This document shows, in pieces, positions 10,480 through 27,802 of a DNA stretch of 42,217 nt; the stretch's first letter is position 1, and every line of letters starts with the position of its first letter. Under the pieces are notes generated by a model. That model made no database searches and was not told the origin of the DNA. It saw only the letters and a list, made by a program, of their open reading frames with translations. The stretch lies in IMG/VR virus record IMGVR_UViG_2703718801_000022. One strand, written 5' to 3'. The DNA is from a virus (taxonomy: Duplodnaviria; Heunggongvirae; Uroviricota; Caudoviricetes). The translations under genes and the position numbers were made by a program.

Positions 10480-10599
10480 CTCATCTCTCCTTTGCCCCAC
10501 GGTGGGGCAAAATAATTGTCACACCGTGCGTCATTGATGTCAAGCACACGGTGAGGCATACTTCAATCATTGCAAGTAACTCAATATTTGGTGAAGAAC
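10480..10599. promoter_or_regulatory. Divergent Arc-like/Mnt-like control region with palindromic operators
   Basis: Perfect 19-bp palindrome TTGCCCCACGGTGGGGCAA (10492-10510); inverted CACCGTG (10522-10528) / CACGGTG (10547-10553). Confidence 0.5.
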
Positions 10600-11031
10600 A
10601 TGAGCAGAGAAGATCCACAACTAAGGATCAGACTTCCCATTGAAGTAAAAGAAAAAATAGAAATTTCTGCAAAAGCCAATAAGCGATCAATGAACGCTGA
10701 AATAGTACAACGTCTTGACACCAGCTTCCTGAAAGATATTCATGAAGATGACGTAATTTCTGCTTATGAAGCAAAAATCATTGCAAACAACGCACGGCAT
10801 GAAATATCAAATATCATTTTCAAAAGAACCTTTAATGAAATTAATAAAAAAATAACACTTGGACATACAAGTTTTTATATAAACCTTAATGACCTTGAAC
10901 TGGAATCACTTGCAGATAATGATTACCAGGTCATCTTTGAAAAAACATTTAATAAGCTCAATGAACTAGGTTACATCATCTGTGAAAATTCATGGGATGC
11001 AGATGGTTTTGGAATTGAAATACCTGAATAG
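10600..11031 (+). CDS. Mnt-like ribbon-helix-helix regulator with extended C-terminal domain
   Basis: N-terminus MSREDPQLRIRLPIEVKEKIEISAKANKRSMNAEIVQRL resembles P22 Mnt; 143 aa vs 83 aa for Mnt; AT-rich. Confidence 0.6.
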   Translation: MSREDPQLRIRLPIEVKEKIEISAKANKRSMNAEIVQRLDTSFLKDIHEDDVISAYEAKIIANNARHEISNIIFKRTFNEINKKITLGHTSFYINLNDLELESLADNDYQVIFEKTFNKLNELGYIICENSWDADGFGIEIPE

Positions 11032-11700: not shown

Positions 11701-14700
11701 TCACCGCATCACCGGATCCACTTGGTTTATTAGTGGCGCAATCCAGAACAGGTTATTGCCGGGTATCAGGGTTCGGACATTATGCACAATACGATCACCG
11801 GCATCACCATTCAACACTCCTGCGGTCACATCAATGATGCTATCCGCAAGACCAAATGACGGTCCGAATAGAGATCCTACGAATCCACGACTGGCATACC
11901 TAGACTGTGTTCCAGTGCCAAATAAAGCCCCCAGCCCAACAGCACCACCAGTAGCCTTTTCAGCCATGTTGTTATATTCCATCAATGGCCCAAGAATACC
12001 GGATCTATCTATACCCTCAAGCACCAGCTTCTCTGGTGACCAGTCAACATTTTTCCCTTTCGATGCTTCTTTAAGCGCATAGACCAGTGAGCCAAGAGCA
12101 ATCTGAAATGCAGTGCCATAATAAAATTGCGCAGTTCCTTCCTGTAACCCACCAAGTAGCGCACGGTTGTATGAAGCCGTTGTGAATGATTTAAACTGAA
12201 ATATCGTTCGCCCCATTGGAGTACTCGCCCATAAAGGTGTGTCACCAATACCGGGGGTGATGATAGTGTTATTAACGTCTTTCAGAACCGCTGACTGGAA
12301 TACTCCGGCAACGTACTGATCGTCCCATTTATCAAAGTTACCAATGTGCCATCCATCAATTACCTCACCATGTTTCTCGAACTCACTGCGAATACGCGCA
12401 GCCATATTGTCGTTGATACCGAGTTTTGCCATGCGACGTGCAGAAAACGCACCAGACAAAATACCGTCTGACGTGAGCATTCCGCTCATAGATTTGTTTA
12501 TGTCATTAAATCGATCCATGAGTGTCAGCTTGCCGAAGGCATCAGTAATTCGCTCCATTCCTGCTTCGACTGCTGTTGTCCTGGAAGAACTGTCAATCAG
12601 ATCACCAATTGCACGAGAACGTGAATGTAGTACAGTTTCCAATCCAATCCCCATCTTCAACATCTCTTCTTTGCTGGCCTTAAATGCCGGTGATTGGGAT
12701 ATCTGAGAAGCATAGCCTTTCATGGTGTTACGGAAACCATTAACCATAACCCCTCTGGCCAGATCTGGAATAGCTGATACTGTCATTCCACCGAGTTTGG
12801 TCGTGAAGTTCACATCCCGCAGAAAAGCGCCAGCACGAACAAAAAACGAAGACGGGTCATCAGGCATACCATATGTACCAACAAGACGATCGCGTAATGC
12901 TGTTATGTCTCTGAGATCATTTGCTCTTGATTTTGAAAGTCTGGACTGTTCTTTTCGTAATTCCTTTTCGTACTTTCGCATTAATGAATCGAGTTTACCC
13001 TGAGGAACAACTTCACCATTGCTCTCATAGCGTGCTTTCAGATTTGCCACACTTTCGTCATATTTCGCCTTTATTTTTTCAGGCACTTCCCGTAACAGAC
13101 TGTCATATTCGTCCTCAATTAATTGCAGACGCTCAGTCATAGTTCGTTTGCCAAACGTTCTCGTCAACTCAATTTCTGCTGCCGCTTCACGGATATGACG
13201 CTGCAGCACGTAATTCACATCACTTTCAAGATAATCCCTGATAAGACTATCAGGCACATTTAATGTTCTTTCTTTCGTACTACCTGCGGCTTTTACAGAA
13301 AATACGCTGACAAAATCCTGTGGAACCTTAGCACCAGTAATTTTATTAATTACGATATCCGCTGCAATTTCAGCATCCTCAGGATCCAGTGTTTTATTTC
13401 CTCTCGACCACCAGTCAACCAAAATACGTCGAAATTTATCGCGTTCACTGATTATTTTTCCAACTTTATATATACGTGGAAAATAGCTTGCCTGGCCTAA
13501 TGCTTTCAGTTCTTCATCTGGCGGTAATAAACCAAGCTTTTGCATTTCAACCTTCACCCGATTTAATACAGTTCGCATCGCCTGCGCCGTTTCCTGAACA
13601 ACAGGATTAGCATGCACATCACCGCTTCGCATAGCATTCCCAACCTGCTGACGAAATGAATCAAAACTCATGTCACCACCATCAGCTTTATACTTTGCGT
13701 ATGCCTGTTTATTTCCGACAACAACAGCAGCTTCTTCACGCTGCCATCCACGTGTACGGGTTTCTACAGCTACCGGTGTTTCAATCCCCCTTTCATTTCC
13801 TTTAAGGGTGAAATTATTTTCGGCTAACTCCAGCGTTGTTTTTCGCACTGTCTTGGACGGAGACTCCATTAACCTTGTCAAAGGAGTAAGATAGCTCCCT
13901 GCTTTCCATGCAGCCTTTCCAACCACCCCACCGGAAACAGGGGTTAAATCATCCAGAGTCGCTGTATCAATTTTCATAGCACCAACACTACCACCATCGG
14001 AAAGCGAAGCGGCAGCCCTGTCAGTCGCTGATGTAATGCTCATATTATCAAGAGCATCAGCAACCTCACGTGTGGCTGCAGCCCGGACGGATGGCGAAAG
14101 CGCAACACCAGCACTGGCAAACACGCCGCTCATCATCGCACCCGCTGCAACGTGAGCGGCACTTTCACCCCATGAGCGTGTTATTTGCTGATTATTCAGC
14201 ACAACCTCGCTTAATGCTGTACCGGCAGCACCAATCGCAATCTGTGAGCCAATACGCGCCAGTGCCCCTCCTTGAGCACCGGGGATAAACATTGACGCAA
14301 CAGTAACCGGATCCATTCCCGCAGCAATACTGGCAAGAGTTCCAACTACGCCAGCATCAGACAATAAACGTCTGTCTTCATTTTCATCATCTATCTGCTG
14401 CTTAATCCACGCCGTTTCCTCTGGCGATCGGGAATCTGCAAATTTCGCCCCCCAGTATTCATAACCGTGCAACTCATTTTTATCAGCATATGGGTTATAA
14501 CCTTCGACCGGTTCAAACTGTCTGGCTGGTCGGAAAAAACCAGCCAGAATATTGTTCTGTCGCATTGCAGCCCCCCATACGGAAGGCTCCGGTGGCAATG
14601 GCTCAGGATTAGCCCCTTCCGGAAGGGCAACATCAAACCCAGTTTGTTCCGGCAAAACATTACCTGACGGGATCAGTCCGTTATTAAGATCTTCAGCTTG

Positions 14701-14715
14701 TGCATAAACTGGCAT
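11701..14715 (-). CDS. Large internal virion/ejection protein (T7 gp16 position)
   Basis: 1004 aa; last large gene of the structural operon; assignment by size and gene order. Confidence 0.55.
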   Translation of the reverse strand: MPVYAQAEDLNNGLIPSGNVLPEQTGFDVALPEGANPEPLPPEPSVWGAAMRQNNILAGFFRPARQFEPVEGYNPYADKNELHGYEYWGAKFADSRSPEETAWIKQQIDDENEDRRLLSDAGVVGTLASIAAGMDPVTVASMFIPGAQGGALARIGSQIAIGAAGTALSEVVLNNQQITRSWGESAAHVAAGAMMSGVFASAGVALSPSVRAAATREVADALDNMSITSATDRAAASLSDGGSVGAMKIDTATLDDLTPVSGGVVGKAAWKAGSYLTPLTRLMESPSKTVRKTTLELAENNFTLKGNERGIETPVAVETRTRGWQREEAAVVVGNKQAYAKYKADGGDMSFDSFRQQVGNAMRSGDVHANPVVQETAQAMRTVLNRVKVEMQKLGLLPPDEELKALGQASYFPRIYKVGKIISERDKFRRILVDWWSRGNKTLDPEDAEIAADIVINKITGAKVPQDFVSVFSVKAAGSTKERTLNVPDSLIRDYLESDVNYVLQRHIREAAAEIELTRTFGKRTMTERLQLIEDEYDSLLREVPEKIKAKYDESVANLKARYESNGEVVPQGKLDSLMRKYEKELRKEQSRLSKSRANDLRDITALRDRLVGTYGMPDDPSSFFVRAGAFLRDVNFTTKLGGMTVSAIPDLARGVMVNGFRNTMKGYASQISQSPAFKASKEEMLKMGIGLETVLHSRSRAIGDLIDSSSRTTAVEAGMERITDAFGKLTLMDRFNDINKSMSGMLTSDGILSGAFSARRMAKLGINDNMAARIRSEFEKHGEVIDGWHIGNFDKWDDQYVAGVFQSAVLKDVNNTIITPGIGDTPLWASTPMGRTIFQFKSFTTASYNRALLGGLQEGTAQFYYGTAFQIALGSLVYALKEASKGKNVDWSPEKLVLEGIDRSGILGPLMEYNNMAEKATGGAVGLGALFGTGTQSRYASRGFVGSLFGPSFGLADSIIDVTAGVLNGDAGDRIVHNVRTLIPGNNLFWIAPLINQVDPVMR

Positions 14716-17432
14716 TATTTAGATCCCCACGAAAAGTAATCTTTAAATTTGTCCATACGTTCGTTATGCAGGCGCTGATACTGCTCATCCAGAGCGCGAT
14801 GCTTGTCTTTGAAGTTTCGTATAGCCTGTCCACGCATAATTTCTTCCTGCTCGTACTGCTCCCGTTCCTGCTGCATTTTCTTATAAGGTTCCCAATCTTC
14901 TAGTGATGGTTCCCAACGCATAGGACGCCCATGTTTGTTATAAAACGGCTGGACCCGATCGATGCCATTTTCATCCTTAGTTCTTACCATAATGGCGTAA
15001 TCACCATTACGAGGTGTTAACACGTCAGGGGTTATGAATAATTCTCCATTAATACGACTCTCAGGGGTTTTTGTCTCAACTACAGGAGCATTACCTGACG
15101 TGATCCCAAGCAACGTCGGACTGGTTGTTATAATCTCTTTGCGCTCACCGTACATCAGCCGTTCTTTTTCAGCTTTCCACTGCGCCGCCTGCCAGCCTGA
15201 CGGCCCATATTGATAAAGCGCCTCCGGTGCATATTTCATAAACTGCGCTTCTCCGTTAACCTCGCTGATACTCCAGGTGCGGGCTATCTGCTGGTTGGTC
15301 ATTTGCTTCGCTACGTCAGCGTTACCACCAGCAACGCGGTAGTTAATGTCATACAGCGTCTGATAGTCATTACGGAATCTAGCTGCTTCCGGCGTCTGGT
15401 CATCCGCAGACGGATCCCAACGGAACCACTGCGCCATATTGCTGACAGCAGAATTCATCGCCTTGCTGCGATCATTTTTGTACTCTTTTGAACTCTGCGT
15501 TGATGCCAATTGAGCTTTAAGAGCATCGGTCTGGTTGTACGTAAGGTTCTGCGCCTGCTCGATAGCCGCATCAGCAGACATGCCAGAATCAGTTAGTTGC
15601 TTAACAGTCAGATAAAAACCCTGCATATCCTTCGGCATATTTCCAATAGATGCATTGTCTGTTTCATATAACCGACTAAACAGTTCAGCCGCATTTTTAA
15701 CCACTTCCTGATTGCTGGATCGGGATACTGCTGAAAGCTGCGTGATGACCTGCGAAGGCATTATGCCAGTCTGAGCCACAAGCCGAACAACCCCATCATG
15801 AGTGGAGGCATCATTAATACGAAAGTTCTGCGCCATTTCTGTGTAATCAGCAGCTTTCTGCATTGACTTGTTGCTTGGGTCTAATTTTTCACCTATTGTC
15901 AGCGCCTCATTAAATCTGCGTGAATCCCGTTGCGCCTGAATTGCTTCATTTGATCTCTGAAGCAATGCAGACAATTTTCCGTAAGCATCGAGTTTTAACG
16001 CATAGTGAGGATCGTTAACCTCAGGCTTCACTTTCTGCATTTCTTCTTGCTGCTGAGAAGGAGGCAAATACTGAATTGCCTGGAATATTCTCGCGTTATC
16101 AATCGCTATATCCAGTTGGTTGATTATTTTATCTGCGTTTTTTCCATACCCCCTGATGATGGTCTCCTGAGCCGGTATATAATCTGGAACCTCACCGTTA
16201 TATAGCTGGGCCATGGTGTTATTAATAGCTGGCTCAAGCTGTTCTAATATTAACTTCCTTTGCTTTTCTATCTGACTATTAGCAAGGTTATCTATTTGAT
16301 AAATAGTCAGCGGATCCATTCCAGTTTTATTTTTTCTATATCGGGAAAGCCACCCTTGTGTTTCTGATGGAAGATTTCTGATAAATTCTTCTTCTGATAT
16401 TTCACCTTTACGTGGATCACCGACTTTGGCGATCAGTTTATCCACGTTACCCATCCCCCAGTTATATGCTGCTCCGGCCAATATTTCGGAGCCGTACTTA
16501 CCATACAGTTGATTTACATAGTCACTGGCGAGCATTTCATGCTGTTGTTCGTCCGTAGGGTTGTATTCAACGCCACGCTTGGCCGCCAGTTCTTTCCCTG
16601 TGCCCGGCATTAACTGGTATTTCCCCTGGGCTCTCTCTCCAGAAGATGTTATCGGTCCTTCAAGAAGACTACCATCAGGATTAAAATGTCGATCGCCTGA
16701 TTCAACAAGGCGTATGGCACGCATGTCCATGCCTCCAGAATCATTTTTCTGAAACAGACCATTTAGCCATCCTTCTGGATTGGCAGCGGCATAATTCTTC
16801 GCCCGCGTTTCTGTGGCACTGCGATCATCACTTTCTATTTCTTCCAGAATGCGTTCTTGTGACCATCCCCTGGCAGCTCCATATCTGGCAATGGCTACCA
16901 TTCTGGAATTTCTGGCTAAAGTGGCAGTTTGCGGGTCATTCCAGGCATCCGCTTCATTTTGTATCCATAATTTTCTCGTTGCCTGATATTGCTCATCTTC
17001 ATAGGCATTTGTCTGCCCTATCTCATGTCTGAGAACTCCAGTACTGAACTGAATTTTCTGTGTTCTGGCTTGTTGCAAAAACATATTTCTTGCTGCTTCA
17101 TCAGTCAATGAAGCAGCTATTTCTTCCACATCCTGATCAAATCCAGATATGTACTCTTGCCCCTTACCAATCGCATTTTTGCCTTGTTGTGCATAAAAAC
17201 CGGTTTGAGGGTTATAAAGACGTTCATTGCTGCGCTGATTAAGCTGAAGGATGGCATCCTGAGACAATGCAACATTCGCTTTCTGCCTGGCTTCACCATA
17301 TGCCACCGCATACTGATCTGCGACATTCGCCAGCACCTGACCTGCTTGAGGAACATCGAAGGTCTGAAAACCACCGGTTTGCACACCACGACTTTGCACC
17401 TGGCGTCCGGATGTAGTAGGAACAACTGGCAT
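14715..17432 (-). CDS. Internal virion protein with lytic transglycosylase (SLT) domain
   Basis: 905 aa; SLT-like motifs GERAQGKYQLMPGTG and AAYNWGMGNV. Confidence 0.65.
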   Translation of the reverse strand: MPVVPTTSGRQVQSRGVQTGGFQTFDVPQAGQVLANVADQYAVAYGEARQKANVALSQDAILQLNQRSNERLYNPQTGFYAQQGKNAIGKGQEYISGFDQDVEEIAASLTDEAARNMFLQQARTQKIQFSTGVLRHEIGQTNAYEDEQYQATRKLWIQNEADAWNDPQTATLARNSRMVAIARYGAARGWSQERILEEIESDDRSATETRAKNYAAANPEGWLNGLFQKNDSGGMDMRAIRLVESGDRHFNPDGSLLEGPITSSGERAQGKYQLMPGTGKELAAKRGVEYNPTDEQQHEMLASDYVNQLYGKYGSEILAGAAYNWGMGNVDKLIAKVGDPRKGEISEEEFIRNLPSETQGWLSRYRKNKTGMDPLTIYQIDNLANSQIEKQRKLILEQLEPAINNTMAQLYNGEVPDYIPAQETIIRGYGKNADKIINQLDIAIDNARIFQAIQYLPPSQQQEEMQKVKPEVNDPHYALKLDAYGKLSALLQRSNEAIQAQRDSRRFNEALTIGEKLDPSNKSMQKAADYTEMAQNFRINDASTHDGVVRLVAQTGIMPSQVITQLSAVSRSSNQEVVKNAAELFSRLYETDNASIGNMPKDMQGFYLTVKQLTDSGMSADAAIEQAQNLTYNQTDALKAQLASTQSSKEYKNDRSKAMNSAVSNMAQWFRWDPSADDQTPEAARFRNDYQTLYDINYRVAGGNADVAKQMTNQQIARTWSISEVNGEAQFMKYAPEALYQYGPSGWQAAQWKAEKERLMYGERKEIITTSPTLLGITSGNAPVVETKTPESRINGELFITPDVLTPRNGDYAIMVRTKDENGIDRVQPFYNKHGRPMRWEPSLEDWEPYKKMQQEREQYEQEEIMRGQAIRNFKDKHRALDEQYQRLHNERMDKFKDYFSWGSK

Positions 17433-18007
17433 CAGTAACCTCCTATTTTGAATCGGGAGTCAGAATTCATAAAACCTGAGTTAGATAACATTGGCGTCCC
17501 ACCACTAGATGTACTTCCTTTAGAGAACGGACTCCACGTCCCACCAAACATCTGGTACGCACCGTATGCCTTCAGAGGCGCGGTGAGCAATGTTGTTGCT
17601 GCTCCCACATTCCCCTGTTTACGGGCTGAACTGGCTTCTGCTTTATAGTTAGCAGCCTGAACCTGATAACCGTAAGCCTCGCGTTGCGCGTTATTCACCG
17701 TCGTCAGCGAATCAAGAGCGCCAAACTGGGCAGTGTCGCCAAATATATCCAGCGCGTTACCTGTAGATAAATCAGCGCCGGTAGCCCCCATTGTCGCCGC
17801 CTGTGTACCAAGCCGCTGTCGGGTCTCTCTGCGCCGTTGCTCAGCTTCAGCGTTACCTCTGTTTATTGCATCATTTGCCTGAGCAGTGGCTATATCTGCG
17901 TTCGCTTCTGCAACCTTCGAGGCATACTTTCCCTGTTGGTACTGGGTGTATGCCTGAATGCCACTCATGGCGAGCATTGCGCCACCAGCAATAACCGGAT
18001 CGCACAT
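17432..18007 (-). CDS. Internal virion protein (T7 gp14 position)
   Basis: 191 aa Ala/Gly/Gln-rich; translationally coupled; size and order match T7 gp14. Confidence 0.4.
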   Translation of the reverse strand: MCDPVIAGGAMLAMSGIQAYTQYQQGKYASKVAEANADIATAQANDAINRGNAEAEQRRRETRQRLGTQAATMGATGADLSTGNALDIFGDTAQFGALDSLTTVNNAQREAYGYQVQAANYKAEASSARKQGNVGAATTLLTAPLKAYGAYQMFGGTWSPFSKGSTSSGGTPMLSNSGFMNSDSRFKIGGY

Positions 18008-18471
18008 TATTTTCTCTCCATGTGAAATCTGTGGAAATTAAGACCAAGAGCACCATAAGGCGCGGCTTCTTCAAGCCTGAATCCAAGCCAGTGCAGCCAT
18101 GCTTTGGCAACATGGTTTCGCTCGTCGACGTAGTTTTCCAGGCGCGGATAAACTGCCAGCATCTGCTGCAATACAGGTCGGCAGTGGCGAAGAAATGTCT
18201 TCTGATATTTTTCAATACGGCTGGTTCCTACCAGCCAGGGCGTACCATTGCCACCGATCATTGACGCCGGAGATACACCAAACATGGTTACCAGTTCTCC
18301 GTTCGCGAACCCTGACCAGGCCATAGTCGCAGTGCGAAGACCAACGCGCAGCGCATCTTCGGTAGTCATCAGCGATACCGCATACAGTTCGTCAATATCA
18401 GCCTGACGAACATCCGGCAAAATCATCTGAAGATGCTCTTCGGTAGCGGGAATAATTTGAACATCGATCAT
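18007..18471 (-). CDS. Virion assembly/internal protein (T7 gp13 position)
   Basis: 154 aa; coupled between nozzle-like and gp14-like genes. Confidence 0.35.
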   Translation of the reverse strand: MIDVQIIPATEEHLQMILPDVRQADIDELYAVSLMTTEDALRVGLRTATMAWSGFANGELVTMFGVSPASMIGGNGTPWLVGTSRIEKYQKTFLRHCRPVLQQMLAVYPRLENYVDERNHVAKAWLHWLGFRLEEAAPYGALGLNFHRFHMERK

Positions 18472-20936
18472 CAGAATCCCCCAACAGTAAGGCGAGGAAT
18501 AACGGCAAGAACAGACAGCGGCAACGGGTCAAGCTGACGGATTTTTACACGCCCGTTTTTGCCCCAGTTACTGTCCAGTTTCACTTCTACTTTTCCGGTA
18601 GCATCATCAACAGGATCATCGTAGAACTCGAATTCACGCTGTGGATATTCGTACCATTTACCGCCGGGCGTAGTCGCCCAGATGCCGCGACTGGCATTCA
18701 CAACCAGAGTAACGGACGGGATCACCTGTTTTTTGTCCAGCAGCGTTTCCTGTCCGTTAATGTTGATATCCAGTGTTTCGAATTCAGCAGTTATTGGCAG
18801 GCCGATGTGCACAACAGCCCCCGGTGATTCCAGCGTGACGGCACCTCCGGAAACCACTTTCTGTGGTTCCACGTTCGCATCAGAGAGAATGTTTACGGTC
18901 TGGCCTTCAAGATGAGACAGGCCTCCAAATGTCCGGCGCGCCATCTGCCAGTTCGTGGTAGCCACATTCCTGAGGGATGGCGGGACGTTCCTGTTAGCAC
19001 GAACCACTACAGCGGTATTGCTGGTTACAGAAATGATGTCGCAACGTAATTCTTTTGACACTTCATCGCCAGGATCAGTTCCGGTATAAGGGAACTGTAG
19101 TTGAGCACCGACATCACTACTGGTGAAGTACGCACCACCAGAAACACTGATTGTATATTCCGCGCGGTAATCCCATTCGCCAGAACCACCAGTGATGATC
19201 ATCGTTCTGTCAGACGTATTTCTTCCATCATAGCTAAGGCCAGAATCAACAAAGAAAGCATCTTCATCGCTGGTAAATAAACGGCTGGACAGTCGCTCGA
19301 TGTATCTCACTGTTTGCCCGTTAACGGTTCGGTTAACGACGAAATACACCGCATCTTCATTTCCTTCGCTGATACTGCATGTGCTTTCATATTTTCCGGT
19401 ACTGGATTGTGGTGCCCATGCAAAAACCTGCTGATCACGCAAATAGGTCATCACCAGTAATTTACCGTCATCACGAATGCAGAAGGCGCTGGAGTAAGGG
19501 ACAATAGAGAAGCACCAGTCAACAATGCTGTGCTTCTGAAAAAGATGATTGGCAAGGATGGTCAGGTCGTTCCCCTGATAGCCGTCAACATCGAATGAGT
19601 AGGCCAGATCACGGACAACACTGCCTTTCTCCTGGACGAACAGAGCAATATTCGCCACGGCAATTGGTGGGACATTGCTCGAGCCATTTGATCCCTGAGA
19701 GCTGAATGCAAATGATGATGGGGTTAACACTTTGTTCTGGTCGCCGGTGATGACGTACTCACCTCCGGAAGTCAGTGCCACCAGCGAACCGACATCAATC
19801 AGGTGGCGGATCTCATTAACCTGACGCCCGGCATAGGTGTAGATAATTCTGTCGTCATCCTGCGTAGGATTGCTTTTGCCAAAATCCTTATAATCCCCGG
19901 TACGGCTGGCCCAGATAGTCTGAGGGAACGCAGTCGATGCGGCGAAGTAAAGACGTTGTTGATAATAAACAACAGTGCCAGGATAACCATTAACACTGTT
20001 CCAGGCATATTTAGCCCATTTATAGCTGGCATTATCCTCGCCAACTACCTGCGAAGGGATATAGGAAATCACCTCGGCAGTTGCAGTAGTTCCATTTGCA
20101 GCAGTGATACGGGCAATGCCAAAACCACTGTGCAGATATTCCCACTCAATGCCAGTATCATCATCACCGGATCCGCCCCAGCCATCCCATGATGTGCCTT
20201 CTGTATGCGAAGGGCGCAAAGTACCTGTTTTGCCTGCTGTAACGGCGCGATAGTAGTTACTGTCTGCACGGCGAATATCGCCAACCGACGTACTCTTACT
20301 GGTTTCCCATACCGGCACAGAATCCACTGCAGGCTGTTCCAGATAGAACAATTTGCCTACCTGCTCCGCGCCAAAAATAGAGGCGCTTGCCGTTAACGTA
20401 ATTGTCCCGGTGCTGGCGCTGGCATAAACCGTCACTGACTCGTCAATATTGATATCTTCAAATGGCCCGTTCTTCGTTACCACATCAACCAGTTGCCAGT
20501 TGTCATGCGCATAGCGGCGCAACTCTTTCGGCGGGTATGCCGGGTGAACCAGCGTAAGCACGTCGGCGCTTTGCGTAAATTTAATTCGGAACAGATCGGC
20601 TTCAGTATATGGCGTGGCAATTTCATAAATAACATTGCTGCTGTTCAGCACCAACGCACCATCTTTGATAACGCGCATGTACTGGTGTCCGAACTCCAGA
20701 GCATAGGTCTGAACCGTCGAGAACTGAAACGGGATCAGGCGGCATTTCCGATTTGGGTATTTTGCGGCACCGACAAAACGCGTACCTGGTCGATTCTCAA
20801 CGCCGCCATACTGCCGCACGATGAAGTTATCGCACTTGCGCAATGCCACCTGGTACTTCGCCATGTCGATACGTCCGTACAACGACGGTCCAATCTCACC
20901 ACCGGCAAAGCTGGGCTGGATCCAACTGATAGCCAT
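18471..20936 (-). CDS. Tail tubular protein B / nozzle (T7 gp12-like)
   Basis: 821 aa; N-terminus resembles T7 gp12 start (GG.S..P pattern); follows gp11-like gene. Confidence 0.55.
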   Translation of the reverse strand: MAISWIQPSFAGGEIGPSLYGRIDMAKYQVALRKCDNFIVRQYGGVENRPGTRFVGAAKYPNRKCRLIPFQFSTVQTYALEFGHQYMRVIKDGALVLNSSNVIYEIATPYTEADLFRIKFTQSADVLTLVHPAYPPKELRRYAHDNWQLVDVVTKNGPFEDINIDESVTVYASASTGTITLTASASIFGAEQVGKLFYLEQPAVDSVPVWETSKSTSVGDIRRADSNYYRAVTAGKTGTLRPSHTEGTSWDGWGGSGDDDTGIEWEYLHSGFGIARITAANGTTATAEVISYIPSQVVGEDNASYKWAKYAWNSVNGYPGTVVYYQQRLYFAASTAFPQTIWASRTGDYKDFGKSNPTQDDDRIIYTYAGRQVNEIRHLIDVGSLVALTSGGEYVITGDQNKVLTPSSFAFSSQGSNGSSNVPPIAVANIALFVQEKGSVVRDLAYSFDVDGYQGNDLTILANHLFQKHSIVDWCFSIVPYSSAFCIRDDGKLLVMTYLRDQQVFAWAPQSSTGKYESTCSISEGNEDAVYFVVNRTVNGQTVRYIERLSSRLFTSDEDAFFVDSGLSYDGRNTSDRTMIITGGSGEWDYRAEYTISVSGGAYFTSSDVGAQLQFPYTGTDPGDEVSKELRCDIISVTSNTAVVVRANRNVPPSLRNVATTNWQMARRTFGGLSHLEGQTVNILSDANVEPQKVVSGGAVTLESPGAVVHIGLPITAEFETLDININGQETLLDKKQVIPSVTLVVNASRGIWATTPGGKWYEYPQREFEFYDDPVDDATGKVEVKLDSNWGKNGRVKIRQLDPLPLSVLAVIPRLTVGGF

Positions 20937-21541
20937 CAGGACAACCTCGCAATGGTAAACTCATCAACCGGTGGCTGCGGTTCCTGTGATTCATTCTGGC
21001 TATGCGAGCCAGCACTCAGAATCACGCGATTGTACATATTGAGGGCAAATGTACCGAGGTCTGCATTCCCAGTCAGAGCCATGTTAATGGCTGCCGCAAG
21101 ACGCCAGGCCAGCGCCTCCATAAAAATGGCATCAAACATGTTCACATCTGAAACGCGAGAGACATACTTGAGCCATGCCTGAGGCTGGTCTGTGTAGATC
21201 AATTTCCCTGTTCCGTTGGTGTCTGCACCTACTTCGTACTGAACGCGCATTGCTGCTGTTGGATTGCGTACACCGGGAAGCATAATTTCAGTAATGCGCA
21301 GACAATCGGACGGGTACTGGTATGCGTATTCCCAGTCAGGCGGTGGATTGTTCGTATCTGCAAGCGCCACGCGTTTGGTAGCAAAGTTCCAGTCAAAATC
21401 AGAAAGTACAGCATCACGGCAGGCCTCAAAGTGCAGCGAACATTCCCCAGCTTCCTTGCTGGCTTCCGTCAGGCTATTAATGCTGCGGCTGTTGCCAATA
21501 TTGGACAGCGCACGATTGCAGATCTCTACTACAGAGGCCAT
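20936..21541 (-). CDS. Tail tubular protein A / gatekeeper (T7 gp11-like)
   Basis: 201 aa; size, position and N-terminal pattern similar to T7 gp11. Confidence 0.5.
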   Translation of the reverse strand: MASVVEICNRALSNIGNSRSINSLTEASKEAGECSLHFEACRDAVLSDFDWNFATKRVALADTNNPPPDWEYAYQYPSDCLRITEIMLPGVRNPTAAMRVQYEVGADTNGTGKLIYTDQPQAWLKYVSRVSDVNMFDAIFMEALAWRLAAAINMALTGNADLGTFALNMYNRVILSAGSHSQNESQEPQPPVDEFTIARLS

Positions 21542-21870
21542 TACTCACCCCCATTGCCGTACAGGGTTTCAGCCGCTGATTTTTCTACATCCCCGGAAAC
21601 AGGAGCGATCGCCATATCAGTGATCTGCAGATCGGCGCTGCGATTAACACCATCGTCAGTTTCTCTGGCAGACAGGCCTCGAATAACAGCCTTTGCAGTT
21701 ATCATCACTTCTGTTCCGACGCCCTGAGGTTGCGCCTTCAGCTTATTCAATGTGTCGTTATTAAGAGTGATGCACAGCCCCCACGGGTATTCATCGCGAG
21801 TTCTGGTTTCTCCGCTCTCATCCTGGTAGCTGTCAGTGCCGGTTTTGAGGTTTACGAGTTCCATATACAC
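21541..21870 (-). CDS. Hypothetical virion protein
   Basis: 109 aa ORF coupled within the structural operon. Confidence 0.4.
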   Translation of the reverse strand: MYMELVNLKTGTDSYQDESGETRTRDEYPWGLCITLNNDTLNKLKAQPQGVGTEVMITAKAVIRGLSARETDDGVNRSADLQITDMAIAPVSGDVEKSAAETLYGNGGE

Positions 21871-21914
21871 TCCTGCAATAAAGGGGCCGAAGCCCCTTGT
21901 CTGATTCGCGAGGC

Positions 21915-22259
21915 TTACACGCCCAGTTCTTTACGCTTATCTGCGATCTTCTCGCGGAGCGTTTCGGCTTTGGCGTTATGGTGTGGCTTCTCGTTAAAGA
22001 GCAATTCGTACTCTTCACGGAGCTTATCCAGTTCACCATCATCTGACACATCATTGATGATTTTGGTGCTGGTTGCTGCCATAGACACCTTTCCTGCTAC
22101 CTTTGCTTTTGCCTGTCTGGCTGCATCGTTAACAGGTTCCAGTGCGCTACCAGGCTCACCTTCGTATTCGATTTCTGCCCCCTCCGGCCACAGAGTGTTA
22201 TGGATATGAGAGAGGCGCAGAACGCGGTATCTTGGTTTCTCACCTGACATCGATATCAC
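21915..22259 (-). CDS. Hypothetical virion protein
   Basis: 114 aa charged ORF between decoration-like and tail genes. Confidence 0.4.
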   Translation of the reverse strand: MISMSGEKPRYRVLRLSHIHNTLWPEGAEIEYEGEPGSALEPVNDAARQAKAKVAGKVSMAATSTKIINDVSDDGELDKLREEYELLFNEKPHHNAKAETLREKIADKRKELGV

Positions 22260-22268
22260 CTTAACCAG

Positions 22269-22694
22269 TTACTTTTGAGCGGATCGGGTACGGTGTGCAT
22301 CAACATCAAGACTGATACCCGCAGTGAATTCGCCAGCCGTTAGTGGGCCAGTTGCGACGGAGTAGTTAACACGCAGATATCGCTGAACACCGGCAGGCAC
22401 CTTTGCAGAAACAACTCGTTTACCTGCTGTCAGGGTGGTCTTTGCCAGTGCACCACTATCATAAATAGTGGTCCATGAGCTGTTATCCTCACTCGTCTGC
22501 AACTGGATGTTTACAGTTGCATCACCGCTTGCCGTGGCGGCTGTGTTAACCAGCACCCAAAACTCAAGCGGGTAACCCACACCGATATCGCGACGGTTTC
22601 CGTCAATTGGACCGAGATCGATTACGTCAGTAGAAGCCGCGGTATTCGTAACCGCCTGAGCTTCGGAGAACATCAACAGTTTGTCGGTGATCAT
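22269..22694 (-). CDS. Capsid decoration/stabilisation-like protein
   Basis: 141 aa Thr/Ala/Val-rich beta-type protein directly after major capsid gene. Confidence 0.4.
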   Translation of the reverse strand: MITDKLLMFSEAQAVTNTAASTDVIDLGPIDGNRRDIGVGYPLEFWVLVNTAATASGDATVNIQLQTSEDNSSWTTIYDSGALAKTTLTAGKRVVSAKVPAGVQRYLRVNYSVATGPLTAGEFTAGISLDVDAHRTRSAQK

Positions 22695-22745
22695 CTTCTT
22701 TCTCCATTAGTGGGTCTGTTACGACCCACAGGTTAATAACAGGCG

Positions 22746-23738
22746 TTACACCACGCGGGCTTCTGTTTCCAGAAGCGCATCAGTTTCACGGATTGGTACA
22801 CCACGGAATGACGTCCACCACTCGCCTTCAGTCTCTTTTACGCTAATCGCCAGAGATGTTTTCTCCAGAGATTGCAGATCAAGAGCCTGGCCTACAGTGC
22901 GGTTCATGTAGAACACCGGGCGACCCATGCCACGGTTTGGAATGCGATGCAGTGCTTTAACCATCAACTTCGCAATATTTGCGGCAGAGGAAGGTTCTGA
23001 AAGATTGCTGACATCGATGTTTGCAATGCGAACAACATAACGCCAGTCACGCAGAGCAAGTCCGTTGTCCCATTTGTAATGGGTACGGTAGCCTTCGTAC
23101 TTGCCGCCATTAGCATCTTCCAGTGTCACCTGGCCTTTATCTTCCATCTGGATGCCAGCCTTCTGCCCTTTCGGGAAGATGCCATGCACGGTGTTTTCGC
23201 CCCACACCACTAACCAGATTGAGGTGTTATCTGTACCCGTGCCACCAGCATCAATGATGTTCTGAGCATTACCCGCAGACAGGCTGGAATAGCGGGAGGA
23301 CAGCCCCATAAACTGCTGAGGGTTAACGCTGGAATCACCATAAAACAACGTCTGCGCCATCTGCTGATTCATCGCTTCAATAAATGCGCGGTCTTCAGAC
23401 AGGCGGAATTCGGCGGTATTACCGTTCAGATCAGCCAGTGACTTATCGACTTCAGCATAGGTTTCCAGCATTCCAACGGAATCGGTGACCTGCACTGTGG
23501 TTGATTTGCTTGGCTGTACACCATAGTTCAGCAAACGCCAAGTGGCTGAAGGTAAACCAGAACGAATGGTGGTTCGGTGTCCGGTAGGAAGGTTCCCTTC
23601 GACAAAAGGCATATCCTGAAGGATCGGGTTAGTTTGACCGAGAAGCTCGATAATCTTATCGACTTTCCCGTTTGGATCGACGCGCTTACCCCAGTCAGCC
23701 AGCGTTAGCGCAGTTAAGCCTTTAACAGCCATTGTCAT
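22746..23738 (-). CDS. Major capsid protein
   Basis: 330 aa following scaffold gene; size and position typical of podovirus capsid protein. Confidence 0.75.
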   Translation of the reverse strand: MTMAVKGLTALTLADWGKRVDPNGKVDKIIELLGQTNPILQDMPFVEGNLPTGHRTTIRSGLPSATWRLLNYGVQPSKSTTVQVTDSVGMLETYAEVDKSLADLNGNTAEFRLSEDRAFIEAMNQQMAQTLFYGDSSVNPQQFMGLSSRYSSLSAGNAQNIIDAGGTGTDNTSIWLVVWGENTVHGIFPKGQKAGIQMEDKGQVTLEDANGGKYEGYRTHYKWDNGLALRDWRYVVRIANIDVSNLSEPSSAANIAKLMVKALHRIPNRGMGRPVFYMNRTVGQALDLQSLEKTSLAISVKETEGEWWTSFRGVPIRETDALLETEARVV

Positions 23739-23746
23739 TTCCTCTC

Positions 23747-24448
23747 TTATTTGCCATAGAGCACTTCGGCCGCACTACGCTGGCCTTCATTACCACCGGT
23801 GACCATGCCATCTTCAGACATCGCCTTTCCGATTTTCACGAACGTTTTGACCAGATCAGGGTGATTACCCAGCCCGGTGGTGTTCAGATATTCTTTGAGC
23901 TCAGGTGTCCCGAACTGGTCAAGCGCACGCTGTGCGGCGCTAAGGTTAGAAATCAACTTGTCGCCACCGATTTCTTTGTCAGCTTTTACATCCGCAGCCC
24001 ACTGCTCGGTTGTTTTCTGCCAGGCTTCTGCCTGGCGCTGCTGAACACCTGCCAGAATCTTCGGATAAGCATCAACCAGCTTTTGCGCTTGCTCGTTGGT
24101 CAGGTTAAGTTCTCGCGCCACCGGCTCGAATTCCTGCAACGCTTCTGTATCCAGCTCTACGCCTTCGGCAGCCTGAAACTCGTACTTCTCAGGCGCACCC
24201 TCTGGTTTATTGCCGTCCTTTTTTTCATCCTGCTTATCGTTTTCAGGCTTTTTGTCATCAGCAGGTTTATCGCCATCAGCAACAGGTTGTGGCTTATCAC
24301 CTTCCTGTTGTGATGGATCACCAACTGGAGCAGGGTTATCACCTGCAGGCGCTGACGGTTCTGACGCAGCCGGAGCTGCTCCACCATCGACTGGTTGCTC
24401 ATTGCAAAGACGGCGATACAGCAAACGCTCAAATAAATTCATGATCAC
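23747..24448 (-). CDS. Scaffolding protein
   Basis: 233 aa, acidic Pro/Asp/Lys-rich N-terminus and helical C-terminus; between portal and capsid genes. Confidence 0.6.
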   Translation of the reverse strand: MIMNLFERLLYRRLCNEQPVDGGAAPAASEPSAPAGDNPAPVGDPSQQEGDKPQPVADGDKPADDKKPENDKQDEKKDGNKPEGAPEKYEFQAAEGVELDTEALQEFEPVARELNLTNEQAQKLVDAYPKILAGVQQRQAEAWQKTTEQWAADVKADKEIGGDKLISNLSAAQRALDQFGTPELKEYLNTTGLGNHPDLVKTFVKIGKAMSEDGMVTGGNEGQRSAAEVLYGK

Positions 24449-24741
24449 TCCTGTTCACTGGCCTCTTTGGCCATCTTCAAATACTGTTCAGGGCAATGCG
24501 CCATAACGCGCTGAAACAGTTCCAGCGCCAGATTGCGTTGCCCCTCATTAAATGCCATTGCCATAGCGTCCATCGGTGAGATAGCGGAAAACACACGGCC
24601 TTTCTCCAGCACCGACCAGACAACGCGACGCCCCTGTTCACTGCTCATGACAAAGCGAATGTCATCAATTTCACGCTGCGCCATGTCACGTTGCTTACGG
24701 GCGTTTTCTTCTTTCAGTTGATCGTCTTCGTAATCTGTCAT
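24445..24741 (-). CDS. Hypothetical small acidic protein
   Basis: 98 aa ORF coupled between portal and scaffold. Confidence 0.45.
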   Translation of the reverse strand: MTDYEDDQLKEENARKQRDMAQREIDDIRFVMSSEQGRRVVWSVLEKGRVFSAISPMDAMAMAFNEGQRNLALELFQRVMAHCPEQYLKMAKEASEQE

Positions 24742-26417
24742 TGTGATTGCCCACCCTGACCACTAACTGCATTCGCCATAGCTGACAAAACACTCGGATC
24801 CGAAGTTTTAGCTTCGCTTAGCGTCTTGGCACCCTGTGCCGCAGCCATCCCCATCGCCATCATTTGTTGCTGCTGTTGCTGCTGTGCCCGTTGCTGGCGA
24901 GCCTGCTCAACCTGTTCCTGCGGAACAATGACGGTTGGAGACACTCCAGACATATCAGCGAATGCATCGATCGCCTGATCAACGTTGAGTTTGTCGAGAG
25001 CTTCTGGTTTCGCTTGCGCAAGTTGACCTATGAAGTTGACCGTAGACGCCAGACTGGACAGGCCGATAGACTTCTGCGCCTGAGCCATGACGGAAATGTA
25101 TTCGACCTTCAGGGGCATACCTTCCATCGCGTCAGGCGGTGGCGGCAGCATGTTTTTACGCACCATCATCGAGAAAGCGCGGTCAATGAGAGGATTAAGA
25201 CATTCGTCGTTCAGACGCTCCAGAACCGGCCCCAACATTAGAAGTTTTTCTTCTTTCATTTCGATCACTGCTTCAACAGGCATCGAGCGGGTATTGATGT
25301 TCTGCAACATCATGAACAGATCGACAAAGTAGGCGCTGTTAATGATTTGGCGAGTGTCCTGAATGTCTGCTACCAGATCTGCTGTACTGGGGTTAACCAG
25401 ATAAGCAGGCCTGAAACCATCCTGACCAGTAATCTGATCGATATACGTGATGTCGCCAGGAAGAAGGGATGCGCGCTGATTCTTGAGGGAAGTCGGAGCA
25501 ACCATCGGCGGATTGGTGGCTTTATCAATCAACTGCGACTTACGCTTCTGGAGAAGCTGCAATGCCTTAACAGGTCCAAGCGCCAGCATACCCGGGCATG
25601 ATGATCCATAAACATCTTCGCCGTTAACTTCCCAGCGCGGAGCCATAATTGGAAACTCATCGAATCCGGACTCACGCAACAACTTGTCGTTATCGCCACC
25701 AACCTCGTAATAAACCGATTTGAATGGCTTGTTCTTGCTATCCAGCTTCGATGTATCGCGGTCAATGTTCGGGTAAACCGAATGCATCACTTCAATCCAC
25801 TTCTCGTAGGTGCCGCTTTCCCACATGCTTTTTACGGATTCGCTGACGTTATTTAGCCCGAACTCCTGAACAAGCTGACGAACGGTCATAGAGAACTTGC
25901 GAAAACAGGTGTCCACACTGCCACGAGGTGAGTTAGCCAGGTAGTAACTGCCTATCGGGAATGGCATTGTGCGAATGATGTCCTCGTCATCCTCCAGTAC
26001 CGCCATTGCACCAGTGCTGTATGTGCCGAGGCTTCCGTATAACTGCGGAAGAGACTGGTAGAGATTCGACTTATTGAACATATCGTTCATGCGGTTCTGC
26101 ACCGCCTCAAGCCACAACTTAACAGGGCCATAATCCATCATTTCAGGATCTGGCGTAGCTAGGCGAAACCACGGACGCGCGGGGCTTGTGATGCCTGACA
26201 TCATGCCGCTGGCGAGAGTGCGCGCCGCCATAGTCCCGGTCGAATCAATAATGCGTGTATTGCGTCGATCGTTACGGTTGACATCAGAAGTCAGAAAGCG
26301 GGAACCACGCGGGTTGATGTAATCACTCAACTCGCGCCAGTGCGGCTCGAACGACTGACGCTCGCTTTCAAGTTGTGCGAACTGTTTGTTCAATCGCTCT
26401 TTAGTTGTTTCCGCCAT
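24738..26417 (-). CDS. Portal (head-to-tail connector) protein, T7 gp8-like
   Basis: 559 aa; Gln/Ala/Met-rich C-terminal tail as recalled for T7-type connectors; precedes scaffold and capsid. Confidence 0.75.
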   Translation of the reverse strand: MAETTKERLNKQFAQLESERQSFEPHWRELSDYINPRGSRFLTSDVNRNDRRNTRIIDSTGTMAARTLASGMMSGITSPARPWFRLATPDPEMMDYGPVKLWLEAVQNRMNDMFNKSNLYQSLPQLYGSLGTYSTGAMAVLEDDEDIIRTMPFPIGSYYLANSPRGSVDTCFRKFSMTVRQLVQEFGLNNVSESVKSMWESGTYEKWIEVMHSVYPNIDRDTSKLDSKNKPFKSVYYEVGGDNDKLLRESGFDEFPIMAPRWEVNGEDVYGSSCPGMLALGPVKALQLLQKRKSQLIDKATNPPMVAPTSLKNQRASLLPGDITYIDQITGQDGFRPAYLVNPSTADLVADIQDTRQIINSAYFVDLFMMLQNINTRSMPVEAVIEMKEEKLLMLGPVLERLNDECLNPLIDRAFSMMVRKNMLPPPPDAMEGMPLKVEYISVMAQAQKSIGLSSLASTVNFIGQLAQAKPEALDKLNVDQAIDAFADMSGVSPTVIVPQEQVEQARQQRAQQQQQQQMMAMGMAAAQGAKTLSEAKTSDPSVLSAMANAVSGQGGQSQ

Positions 26418-26431
26418 TTCAATGACTCCGG

Positions 26432-26638
26432 TTACTGACCAAGCAGCGTTTTACCGCTGGTATTAGCGGTTGATGTGTCGCCCTGAGAACCGGTAAGCAG
26501 CGTAGAACTACGACCAGCAGCAGCGCGACGGCGACGTGTTTCTTCGTCGCGGGCATCAACAACGGCGGCATCCTGCTCCTGTGGTGCTGCCTGAACTTCT
26601 GGTGTTGCAGGCACTGATGGTGAGCTACCCATGCACAT
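26432..26638 (-). CDS. Hypothetical small protein upstream of portal
   Basis: 68 aa ORF with GGAG 8 nt upstream; low-complexity. Confidence 0.3.
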   Translation of the reverse strand: MCMGSSPSVPATPEVQAAPQEQDAAVVDARDEETRRRRAAAGRSSTLLTGSQGDTSTANTSGKTLLGQ

Positions 26639-26728
26639 ATCAATGACTCCGTACGCAATTAAATTATTACCAACTTAACCACATATGATTTATTTATCGT
26701 AGATAGTTGACATTTAACGCACGAATTA

Positions 26729-26743
26729 TTACCTTTAAGGTAA
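26729..26743. promoter_or_regulatory. Operator-like palindrome TTACC-TTTAA-GGTAA
   Basis: Perfect member of dispersed family; upstream of portal operon and next to TTGACA at 26707-26712. Confidence 0.45.
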
Positions 26744-26759
26744 TCAAAGAGTTCATTCC

Positions 26760-27060
26760 GGTTATTAACCTGACTGGCTTGTCGTTAAATTGAACAGGTG
26801 GAGTGAGCTTTTATTTTGAGCAGTACGGCGTATGGCACATGCGCCGATAGTGGTCTGGATACGTTTAAGGGGCACCCTCCCTTGCTCGGGCAAACGAACC
26901 AGGTAGCCGGAATGTGCAAGTCGAGCGGTTTTATTCCGCGCACGGGGATTCACCATCCCGGCGATTCGGTGTGACGCCTCGGAAGAGACGAGGGTACAAC
27001 GATGAGAGCATTTATGGAGCCGCGACAAAGTGTGGTGCCTTAACAGGCTAAGTGCTCTCA
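26760..27060 (+). other. GC-rich structured non-coding region upstream of tRNA
   Basis: No convincing ORF; several stable hairpins (GGCGTATGG..CATGCGCC, CGGAAT..ATTCCG, CCTCG..CGAGG). Confidence 0.25.
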
Positions 27061-27065
27061 GCGTT

Positions 27066-27142
27066 GTGGCATTAACTCAGTTGGACAGAGCAACCGCCTT
27101 CTAAGCGGTTTGTCGCAGGTTCGAATCCTGCATGCCACGCCA
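27066..27142 (+). tRNA. tRNA-Arg (anticodon UCU)
   Basis: Cloverleaf by eye: acceptor GTGGCAT/ATGCCAC, anticodon stem ACCGC/GCGGT with loop CTTCTAA, T-arm GCAGG-TTCGAAT-CCTGC, 3' GCCA. Confidence 0.85.
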
Positions 27143-27185
27143 GAATCACGCCTAAGGACCGTGATGCCAGAAGTTCCAGGTGCTT

Positions 27186-27228
27186 GGCGGTGATGGTTTC
27201 CCTTGAAGGACTATCACCGCCCTTTTTA
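27186..27228 (+). terminator. Rho-independent terminator downstream of tRNA
   Basis: Stem GGCGGTGAT...ATCACCGCC followed by CTTTTT. Confidence 0.6.
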
Positions 27229-27340
27229 CAGCAGGACGCCATTGCGATGACTTCATGCTGTAAACCAGTACAGCCACGGAAGGCATAACTCATTGCTTCC
27301 AGTTCGCCCGGTTCGCCGGGCATTTTTTTAAGGCGAGATT

Positions 27341-27712: not shown

Positions 27713-27802
27713 CACCGTGACATGTCACAAACAGTCAGCCGATGAGCTGGCTTTGTTTTATCCTCATCAGAGGATATAAACGACATTATCCCCACCAGCG
27801 GA

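Follow-up and report, generated by a model that had tools for sequence, protein, structure and literature searches.

A T7-ordered virion morphogenesis and DNA-ejection gene block in an Escherichia coli prophage of the epsilon15/phiV10 group

The viral sequence IMGVR_UViG_2703718801_000022 (42,217 nucleotides; hereafter the window, meaning this whole stretch of DNA) is very probably an E. coli prophage of the epsilon15/phiV10 group (Uetakevirus-type) and a variant of Escherichia phage TL-2011b, and the segment 11701–26417 is its virion morphogenesis and DNA-ejection operon. An earlier note, drawn from the sequence alone, had described this segment as a T7-ordered virion module within a lambdoid, integrase-bearing prophage and as a mosaic. 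We found that the order of genes from the portal to the last internal protein does parallel T7 gp8–gp16, but that the arrangement is no special mosaic, being the standard architecture of epsilon15, phiV10 and TL-2011b, and that the relationship to T7 is ancient, without BLAST-level identity. The tail and ejection genes share an ancient origin with those of T7, and the head accessory genes belong with those of epsilon15 and BPP-1.

The segment contains 13 open reading frames (ORFs), all on the minus strand, and its bounds are exact, as 11701 is the stop of the 1004-aa ORF and 26417 the start of the portal ORF. Adjacent ORFs overlap by 1–4 nt or are separated by short gaps, suggesting a single operon. 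All gene sizes quoted in the earlier note were correct, and the T7-ordered genes that it listed are present; four small head genes (98, 141, 114 and 109 aa) had been omitted from its list. The proteins of the window and those of T7 were scanned against identical family libraries, and the genes, from the portal onwards, are as follows (IVP, internal virion protein; SLT, soluble lytic transglycosylase).

24738–26417, minus strand: portal protein, 559 aa, T7 gp8-type (PF12236 Head-tail_con, E = 1.8e-187)
24445–24741, minus strand: Bbp19-like small protein, 98 aa (PF25181 Phage_Bbp19, E = 2.8e-17)
23747–24448, minus strand: probable scaffolding protein, 233 aa, or 231 aa if translation starts at the ATG of MNLFE
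22746–23738, minus strand: major capsid protein, 330 aa, epsilon15 gp7 family (PF20911 GP7, E = 2.1e-149)
22269–22694, minus strand: Bbp16-like capsid cement protein, 141 aa (PF21190 Bbp16, E = 9.5e-48)
21915–22259, minus strand: 114-aa protein, epsilon15 gp9 homolog (PHROG 590, of unknown function, E = 3.9e-61)
21541–21870, minus strand: epsilon15 gp10-like small head protein, 109 aa (PF21628 Gp10-like, E = 1.2e-51)
20936–21541, minus strand: tail adaptor, 201 aa, with a predicted T7 gp11/tubular tail protein A fold (Foldseek on an AlphaFold2 model)
18471–20936, minus strand: tail nozzle, 821 aa, T7 gp12/tubular tail protein B homolog (PDB 8ck1_A 'Tail Nozzle', E = 2.7e-218)
18007–18471, minus strand: gp13-like protein (IVP-A), 154 aa (PHROG 308, E = 9.2e-63)
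17432–18007, minus strand: gp14-like ejection protein (IVP-B), 191 aa (PF24072 T7_gp14, E = 4.4e-8)
14715–17432, minus strand: gp15-position internal/ejection protein, 905 aa, with a lytic transglycosylase domain (PF01464)
16371–16763, minus strand: segment coding for the SLT domain, residues ~224–354 of the 905-aa protein (coordinates computed from residue numbers)
11701–14715, minus strand: gp16-like ejection protein (IVP-D), 1004 aa (PHROG 342, E = 3.5e-209)

The identity of the locus follows from its near-identity to TL-2011b and phiV10 across the window. Megablast against 50,697 phage records placed TL-2011b at 98.5% DNA identity across 99% of 11701–26417, and the upstream 60% of the module at about 98% to phiV10, PAS61, ZX5, phiv142-3 and O157 typing phages; Enterobacter phage Tyrion was about 82% identical to the module and Salmonella phage epsilon15 about 75% over part of it. 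By local blastn, positions 7125–27339 are collinear with TL-2011b (97%) and 17526–29966 with phiV10 (97.5% nucleotide identity), and the remainder of the window outside the module also aligns to both. With this DNA identity to a sequenced phage and family-level E-values down to 1e-187, chance is excluded. The head-tail genes (portal, gp5, gp6, gp7, gp8–gp14) correspond one-to-one with phiV10 p07–p17 and epsilon15 gp4–gp14, and the same gene order is present in epsilon15, phiV10, Tyrion, AF, BPP-1, BcepC6B and Vibrio phage 284E43-1. Matches to the region were found in 563 of 5426 complete E. coli genomes, and 45 of these 563 carry at least 80% of it.

Several points weigh against this assignment. 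The phiV10 alignment covers about 25.6 kb of the 42.2-kb window at 84–98% identity, giving about 58% similarity overall, and the genus cut-off of the International Committee on Taxonomy of Viruses is about 70% nucleotide similarity across the genome; with only some 60% of the window aligning with phiV10, formal membership in Uetakevirus is uncertain. TL-2011b itself is unclassified in the NCBI taxonomy, although it was treated as a Uetakevirus in PMC11522302. Only two genes (905 and 1004 aa) follow gp14 here, and not the three large internal proteins of epsilon15 (gp15, gp16 and gp17). The scaffold, capsid and gp15-position proteins have no significant sequence link to T7 gp9, gp10 and gp15, respectively. 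Finally, the phage is known here from its genes alone, and its O-antigen acyltransferase gene is frameshifted.

Profile searches for T7 homology, which the earlier note had proposed as a check, gave positive results for the portal and for the gp12-, gp13-, gp14- and gp16-like proteins, with gp11 linked by fold, and a different result for the head. The portal shares PF12236 with T7 gp8 (2.8e-113 for the latter), and both cross-match PHROG 332 and 449. The major capsid protein, however, belongs to PF20911, and T7 gp10A to a different family, PF21703; the proteins of the window matched neither PF21703 nor the gp9 scaffold family PF05396 in Pfam. The 98-aa protein is a homolog of epsilon15 gp5 and phiV10 p08, and none of the Bbp19-like, Bbp16-like and gp10-like proteins has a T7 counterpart. 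The record of epsilon15 gp8 notes an HHpred match to the BPP-1 cementing protein 3j4u, and a homologous Bbp16-type cement protein has been modelled on the PhiXacm4-11 capsid. The C-terminus of the 114-aa protein is conserved with epsilon15 gp9. As judged from their sequence families, the capsid, cement and staple proteins are assigned to epsilon15/BPP-1 types and not to T7 types. NCBIfam provided no useful match for 10 of the structural proteins.

The 233-aa protein is named differently in different sources. The earlier note had called it a scaffold, and the databases call it a protease: PHROG 458 is named 'protease', NCBI uses 'peptidase', and the epsilon15 and phiV10 records 'protease/endoprotease'. 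If the naming by RefSeq, PHROGs and PGAP were right, this gene would encode a prohead maturation protease and head assembly would be HK97-like, not T7-like. We consider this unlikely. The protein matched no Pfam family at all and no peptidase family in NCBIfam, and a PDB sequence search returned chance matches only. The protein is acidic (isoelectric point 4.56) and contains a Pro/Asp/Lys/Glu-rich, low-complexity linker of variable length, and its AlphaFold2 model is all-helical and of low confidence (predicted local distance difference test score, pLDDT, 46.5), with no beta core and with residues 1–82 disordered. The Pfam match of the capsid protein spans residues 21–330, leaving no space for a cleavable delta domain. 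The 'protease' label of epsilon15 rests, according to its record, only on similarity to a 'putative endoprotease' of LT2, that is, on name transfer from an LT2 prophage gene. A link to a T7 gp9-type scaffold exists, weak and transitive: the 233-aa protein matches the scaffold of Vibrio phage 284E43-1 at E = 0.004, and that scaffold matches T7 gp9 at 2.6e-9, while the local profile of the 233-aa family misses gp9. 'Scaffold' is therefore probably a better name for this protein than 'protease', and the protein is probably the scaffold of the module.

For the tail, the relationship to T7 was detected by structure and by profile. All 22 significant PDB fold matches of the 201-aa model (pLDDT 72.7) in Foldseek were gp11-type adaptors, the best being those of Carin-1 (8ck1_E; 8e-15, 33% identity), LME-1 and P-SCSP1u; T7 gp11 (7box_M) was matched at 6e-6 with a probability of 1.00 and a template modelling (TM) score of 0.47–0.49. 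Against PDB sequences, the same protein matched 8ck1_E at 2.9e-26. No sequence similarity to T7 gp11 was obtained by pairwise BLASTP, local profile or hhalign, the last of which used a 23-sequence adaptor alignment that made too narrow a profile. The 201-aa protein is thus a predicted gp11-type adaptor, by modelled fold only as regards T7. In the RefSeq record of epsilon15, notes on HHpred searches link gp11 to T7 tubular tail protein A, and gp15 to soluble lytic transglycosylase. For the 821-aa nozzle, a seven-sequence local profile of the family matched T7 gp12 alone (E = 1.6e-7, T7 residues 351–443), and similarity between epsilon15 gp12 and T7 gp12 in the same central domain has been reported (PMC4819975); pairwise BLASTP with T7 gp12 gave nothing, and adaptor and nozzle reached neither PF17212 nor PF25675 in Pfam. 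The closest solved structure for both proteins is the tail of Cobetia marina phage Carin-1 (PDB 8CK1), which is a marine phage, unlike the E. coli prophage of the window.

Among the internal proteins, those in the gp13, gp14 and gp16 positions share families with T7. T7 gp13 falls in PHROG 308 together with the 154-aa protein (1.1e-42), and a local profile of the 154-aa family reached T7 gp13 at 8.3e-7; T7 gp14 likewise matches PF24072. The local profiles of the adaptor, scaffold, capsid and gp14-position families missed the T7 proteins. The 1004-aa protein aligns to positions 203–1225 of the 1235 of PHROG 342 ('internal virion protein with endolysin domain'), and T7 gp16 to positions 4–1227. 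Since the alignment starts only at position 203, the 1004-aa protein lacks the N-terminal lysozyme-like part, in agreement with the earlier note that the SLT domain is not at the N-terminus of the largest protein as in T7. A PDB sequence search with this protein gave nothing.

The SLT domain lies instead in the 905-aa protein, where PF01464 was matched at residues 263–342 (E = 1.1e-7) and where residues 224–354 align with residues 13–142 of T7 gp16 (BLASTP, E = 2e-5). The domain that the earlier note had placed in the middle of this protein is therefore real, and it is located in the second quarter and not literally in the middle. The link of the 905-aa protein to T7 gp15 consists of position, size and weak collinear BLAST matches (E = 0.002 and 0.013), and its local profile reaches only the SLT domain of T7 gp16; pairwise BLASTP of the 905- and 1004-aa proteins with T7 gp15 and gp16 gave only weak matches. 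A homolog of IVP-C is likewise unconfirmed in the epsilon15 family, in which gp15/16 are listed as candidates (PMC4819975). An SLT domain on the gp15-position protein is also found in gp15 of phage AF and in P0011 of the Vibrio phage, and Bbp11 of BPP-1 is annotated with a transglycosylase. This placement is normal for the wider group comprising BPP-1, AF and the Vibrio podophages and is not peculiar to this phage.

The two genes following gp14 differ from the rest of the module in their relatives. DNA similarity of the phiV10 type ends at 17526, with 94 nt of the gp14-like gene still to come (blastn). Beyond this point phiV10, epsilon15 and Tyrion carry three large genes, whereas the window and TL-2011b carry two; the phiV10 proteins p18–p20 are 837, 600 and 824 aa long, and none has a Pfam SLT match. 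The first ~250 aa of the 905-aa protein are 42–44% identical to phiV10 p18 and epsilon15 gp15, and residues 519–753 are 31% identical to P0011 of the Vibrio phage. The 1004-aa protein had no BLAST match to phiV10 p18–p20 or epsilon15 gp15–17, and is 32.6% identical over its full length to P0012 of Vibrio phage 284E43-1. The 905/1004-aa pair is 99.4% identical at the protein level to that of TL-2011b. Given the stop in similarity at 17526 and the different relatives of the two proteins, the gp15/gp16 ejection cassette appears to have been exchanged as a unit, or to be exchangeable, between podophage lineages, with the joint in the 3' end of gp14. The closest relatives of the cassette other than TL-2011b were temperate Vibrio podophages of about 32 kb and Klebsiella phage Kp4865-1.

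We compared the module with known systems. T7 gp8–gp16 has the same order of portal, scaffold, capsid, adaptor, nozzle, gp13, gp14, gp15 and gp16, and shares with the window the families of portal, gp13, gp14 and gp16, the adaptor fold and the nozzle profile match. Unlike in T7, the scaffold and capsid are in other families, four extra small head genes are present, the protein in the gp15 position carries the SLT domain (which in T7 is N-terminal in gp16), the tail fibre gene is not adjacent to the module, and the lifestyle is temperate. All 13 genes recur in TL-2011b (NC_019445/JQ011317, from E. coli O103:H25), the two-gene 905/1004-aa cassette among them, as does the adjacent Arc/Ant region, but TL-2011b has no match to 3166–5988 and also differs in several early-region segments. 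With phiV10 and epsilon15 the window has in common the portal-to-gp14 gene order, the operator motif, the N-terminal anchor of the tailspike and the lysis cassette, and it differs from them in having two large genes after gp14 rather than three. BPP-1 and Pseudomonas phage AF resemble the window in possessing Bbp19-, Bbp16- and gp10-like genes and a gp15-position protein with an SLT domain, after which comes a single large gp16-position protein; however, at 2052 and 2213 aa their gp16-position proteins have double the length, protein similarity to the window is low, and in BPP-1 the gp10-like gene directly follows the portal. The temperate ~32-kb Vibrio podophages (for example 284E43-1, OX241448), which are the best relatives outside TL-2011b of the 1004-aa protein and of residues 519–753 of the 905-aa protein, resemble the window in their T7-like gene order, in having an integrase and in carrying SLT on the protein in the gp15 position. 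Unlike the window they have a T7-type scaffold (2.6e-9 to gp9) and capsid (7e-6 to gp10), and their annotations show no Bbp16- or gp10-like gene between capsid and adaptor, a comparison made on annotation only and not by searching the genomes.

These comparisons bear on the possibility that the block is a recent chimera, an unusual new mosaic in which a lambdoid prophage captured the virion genes of a T7-like lytic phage. The T7 gp8–gp16 order, the several families in common with T7, and an early region with lambda-P, RecT/exonuclease VIII and P22 Ant/Arc genes would fit such a capture. Yet none of the T7 structural proteins gave BLAST-level identity, and among the 50,697 phage records there was no genome of the Autographiviridae sharing more than 50% protein identity over the block; the same combined architecture recurs in epsilon15, phiV10, Tyrion, BPP-1 and the temperate Vibrio podophages, and epsilon15-type operators lie on early and late units alike, which indicates that the module has long been integrated in this type of phage. 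We regard a recent chimera as very improbable. An origin as a P22-type module (portal gp1, gp4, gp10, needle gp26 and ejection proteins gp7/gp20/gp16) is hardly credible, despite the PF10547 antirepressor and Arc-domain genes that adjoin the module and a layout of ejection genes, immI, tailspike and O-antigen modification gene that resembles the one known in P22. The portal is in the T7-type family PF12236, all significant folds of the adaptor model are gp11-type (T7-like, Carin-1-like and similar phages), the nozzle matches those of Carin-1 and T7 gp12, and identity at the DNA level is to TL-2011b, phiV10 and epsilon15. A P22-type module was thus refuted at the family level.

An epsilon15-group module of ancient relationship to T7 is in accordance with the literature. 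The epsilon15 group was placed by Hardies et al. (2016) in a T7-related 'transient tail' homology group (PMC4819975), in which epsilon15 gp12 is tubular tail B, gp13/gp14 are IVP-A/-B in syntenic position and gp17 is IVP-D; epsilon15 is also listed among podophages with gp14–16-like ejection proteins (PMC8954989). The T7 relationship of this module is therefore already known, from these publications and from the epsilon15 RefSeq notes, and as a discovery the present finding, a near-copy of a sequenced phage, matters little. Its practical value is in annotation, as labels in TL-2011b, phiV10, epsilon15 and PGAP records are likely misleading and, with such prophages in about 10% of complete E. 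coli genomes, propagate widely. The labels concerned are 'endolysin' for the 905-aa ejection protein and 'hypothetical protein' for the 1004-aa gp16 homolog in TL-2011b RefSeq, 'protease/peptidase' for the probable scaffold, and 'head-tail adaptor' for the portal. Minor clues to how podophage heads and ejectosomes cope with the exchange of modules come from the cassette swap and from a C-terminal tail that the scaffold and gp10-like proteins have in common (described below).

The analysis shows which genes are present and in what order, to which families or folds their products belong, and that the DNA is nearly identical to that of sequenced phages; stoichiometries, order of assembly and the mechanism of ejection are those that work on T7, epsilon15 and BPP-1 would predict. 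By this analogy, the T7-type portal would nucleate a procapsid in which the epsilon15-type, HK97-fold capsid protein assembles around the 233-aa scaffold, and DNA would be packaged by the terminase encoded just upstream. The Bbp16-like cement and gp10-like proteins may stabilise the shell, and the gp11-type adaptor ring and gp12-type nozzle would close the portal and bear the separately encoded tailspikes. The gp14-, gp15- and gp16-position proteins would be packaged as an internal core. Once ejected at infection, they may together span the envelope as a channel, and peptidoglycan would presumably be cut by the SLT domain that the 905-aa protein carries.

We observed a common C-terminal tail, A-x-x-[L/F/M]-Y-[G/P/A], on the scaffold-position and gp10-like proteins, whose coding ends are at 23747–23776 and 21541–21579, respectively. 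The tails of scaffold and gp10-like protein read SAAEVLYGK and SAAETLYGN in the window, ISAFYPKK and KDAFYPDG in epsilon15, and ARRLYAASNM and AQRLYGASSM in BPP-1, and matched pairs are also present in BcepC6B, CP2, Jess A, ctEw122 and zth2-2. The tail thus co-varies between both proteins across eight distant podophage lineages. This set was gathered by tblastn on the phage collection, as a search with the gp10-like alignment gave 80 loci that were all 99% identical. In a permutation test, from which DC33 was excluded owing to a frame change in its scaffold gene, the true pairs had 30 identities; all 14,833 mismatched pairings fell short of that number, averaging 12.1. Codons differ at many of the identical residues, making recent gene conversion unlikely, and we rejected it as the cause of the shared tails. 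One possible explanation, which we put forward tentatively and would not yet favor, is that a single co-evolving site of the head, in the capsid protein or the portal, receives both proteins, in succession or as competitors, with the gp10-like protein replacing the anchor of the departing scaffold. In PhiXacm4-11, which is related to CP2, the Bbp16-type cement protein is the only one of these that has been modelled on the capsid. No published description of the shared tail was found in a literature search that was limited and is not proof of novelty.

The surroundings of the module include genes of the lambdoid temperate type, and features that bear on its control and on packaging and attachment are the following.

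26728–26744, no strand assigned: perfect epsilon15-type repressor operator (ATTACCTTTAAGGTAAT), upstream of the late structural operon
3194, 6752, 8199, 26728, 29870, 29888, 33600, 33662, 35993, 36705 and 36767: operator sites
27803–29278, minus strand: terminase large subunit, upstream of the module
29275–29949, minus strand: terminase small subunit (terS), upstream of the module
4444–6648, minus strand: tailspike, 734 aa, apart from the module

The operator motif was taken from the epsilon15 record, where the equivalent site is annotated as 'repressor' binding. A pattern search for the palindrome ATTACC-N5-GGTAAT with at most one mismatch found the 11 sites, as compared with 0.04 expected by chance. 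Nearly all transcription units have such a site at their start, those of the late, tailspike and lysis genes among them: sites lie at 3194 in the divergent region of the lysis and acyltransferase genes, at 6752 (6752–6768) in that of the tailspike, at 26728 before the late operon, at 29870 and 29888 at terS, and in the immunity region. Judged from these sites, the prophage repressor may directly repress the late genes. The tailspike and lysis genes, which the earlier note had regarded as detached by the mosaic, do have control regions of their own; the mosaic as an explanation is unsupported, because these regions have the same repressor operators as the other operons and because the layout is the same in epsilon15 and phiV10. 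The terminase genes are 96.5–97.5% identical in DNA to their TL-2011b and phiV10 counterparts.

P22- and lambda-like regulation, replication and immI regions, as the earlier note had proposed, were indeed found. In the early region, Pfam identified Phage_integrase, an HTH_3 repressor, a DnaT-domain initiator and Phage_lambda_P, and RecT and exonuclease VIII were assigned from the TL-2011b annotation at 97% identity; an integrase, a CI-type repressor, O/P-type replication genes and a recombination module are thus all present. The TL-2011b and phiV10 annotations name no Q homolog, for which no dedicated search was made, and those annotations, covering most of the window, contain no single-subunit RNA polymerase, a statement for which not every ORF was scanned. 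Downstream of the module lies a 196-aa ORF with no family match, followed by a P22-type immI region with an Arc-domain gene (10570–11031, plus strand), an Arc-like 62-aa ORF (10312–10500, minus strand) and a PF10547 antirepressor gene (9301–10239, minus strand), in the divergent mnt/arc-ant layout with a P22 antirepressor; a strong promoter-like site is located at 10543–10515 and a terminator at 9251–9234. Rfam further detected isrK (7184–7260, 67 bits) and C4 antisense RNA (7285–7368, 66 bits), both on the plus strand, immediately upstream of a Bro-N gene (7402–8127). The isrK/C4/Bro-N set is a P1-type antirepressor control unit adjoining the P22-type region, and the prophage has two antirepressor modules.

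Past the antirepressor units are the tailspike, the acyltransferase gene and the lysis cassette. Positions 5989–7101, on the side of the conserved N-terminal anchor of the tailspike, are 89.7% identical to TL-2011b, whereas 3166–5988, coding for the receptor-binding part and the acyltransferase, matched neither TL-2011b nor phiV10 by blastn; the latter segment is 99.8–99.9% identical in five bovine E. coli genomes. The anchor is reported to be conserved across Uetakeviruses (PMC11522302). The segment 3166–5988 implies that a phage otherwise like TL-2011b has a different O-antigen specificity. The O-antigen acyltransferase gene (Acyl_transf_3; 3281–4395, plus strand) is split into two ORFs by a frameshift at 3909, where one copy of a TGTT repeat fewer is present than in the otherwise identical, intact 372-aa allele of E. 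coli 13E0780. The split may reflect a pseudogene, variation by strand slippage or an error of assembly.

The only copies of the module in complete E. coli genomes that were 100% identical were those of NZ_AP042506.1 and NZ_AP042594.1 (OkiPb01680/01700). Both are broken by ISEc8, an insertion sequence of the IS66 family, apparently in the gene of the SLT protein, which is annotated as two pieces; the segment 11701–26417 itself is without this insertion. Finally, a tRNA-Arg gene with the anticodon TCT was detected at 27066–27142 (plus strand; ARAGORN, and Rfam at 63.8 bits), between the terminase and portal genes. It lies opposite to the late-gene strand and overlaps an ORF at 27072–27323 (minus strand) that by position corresponds to TL-2011b gp24, annotated as a 'hypothetical protein'.

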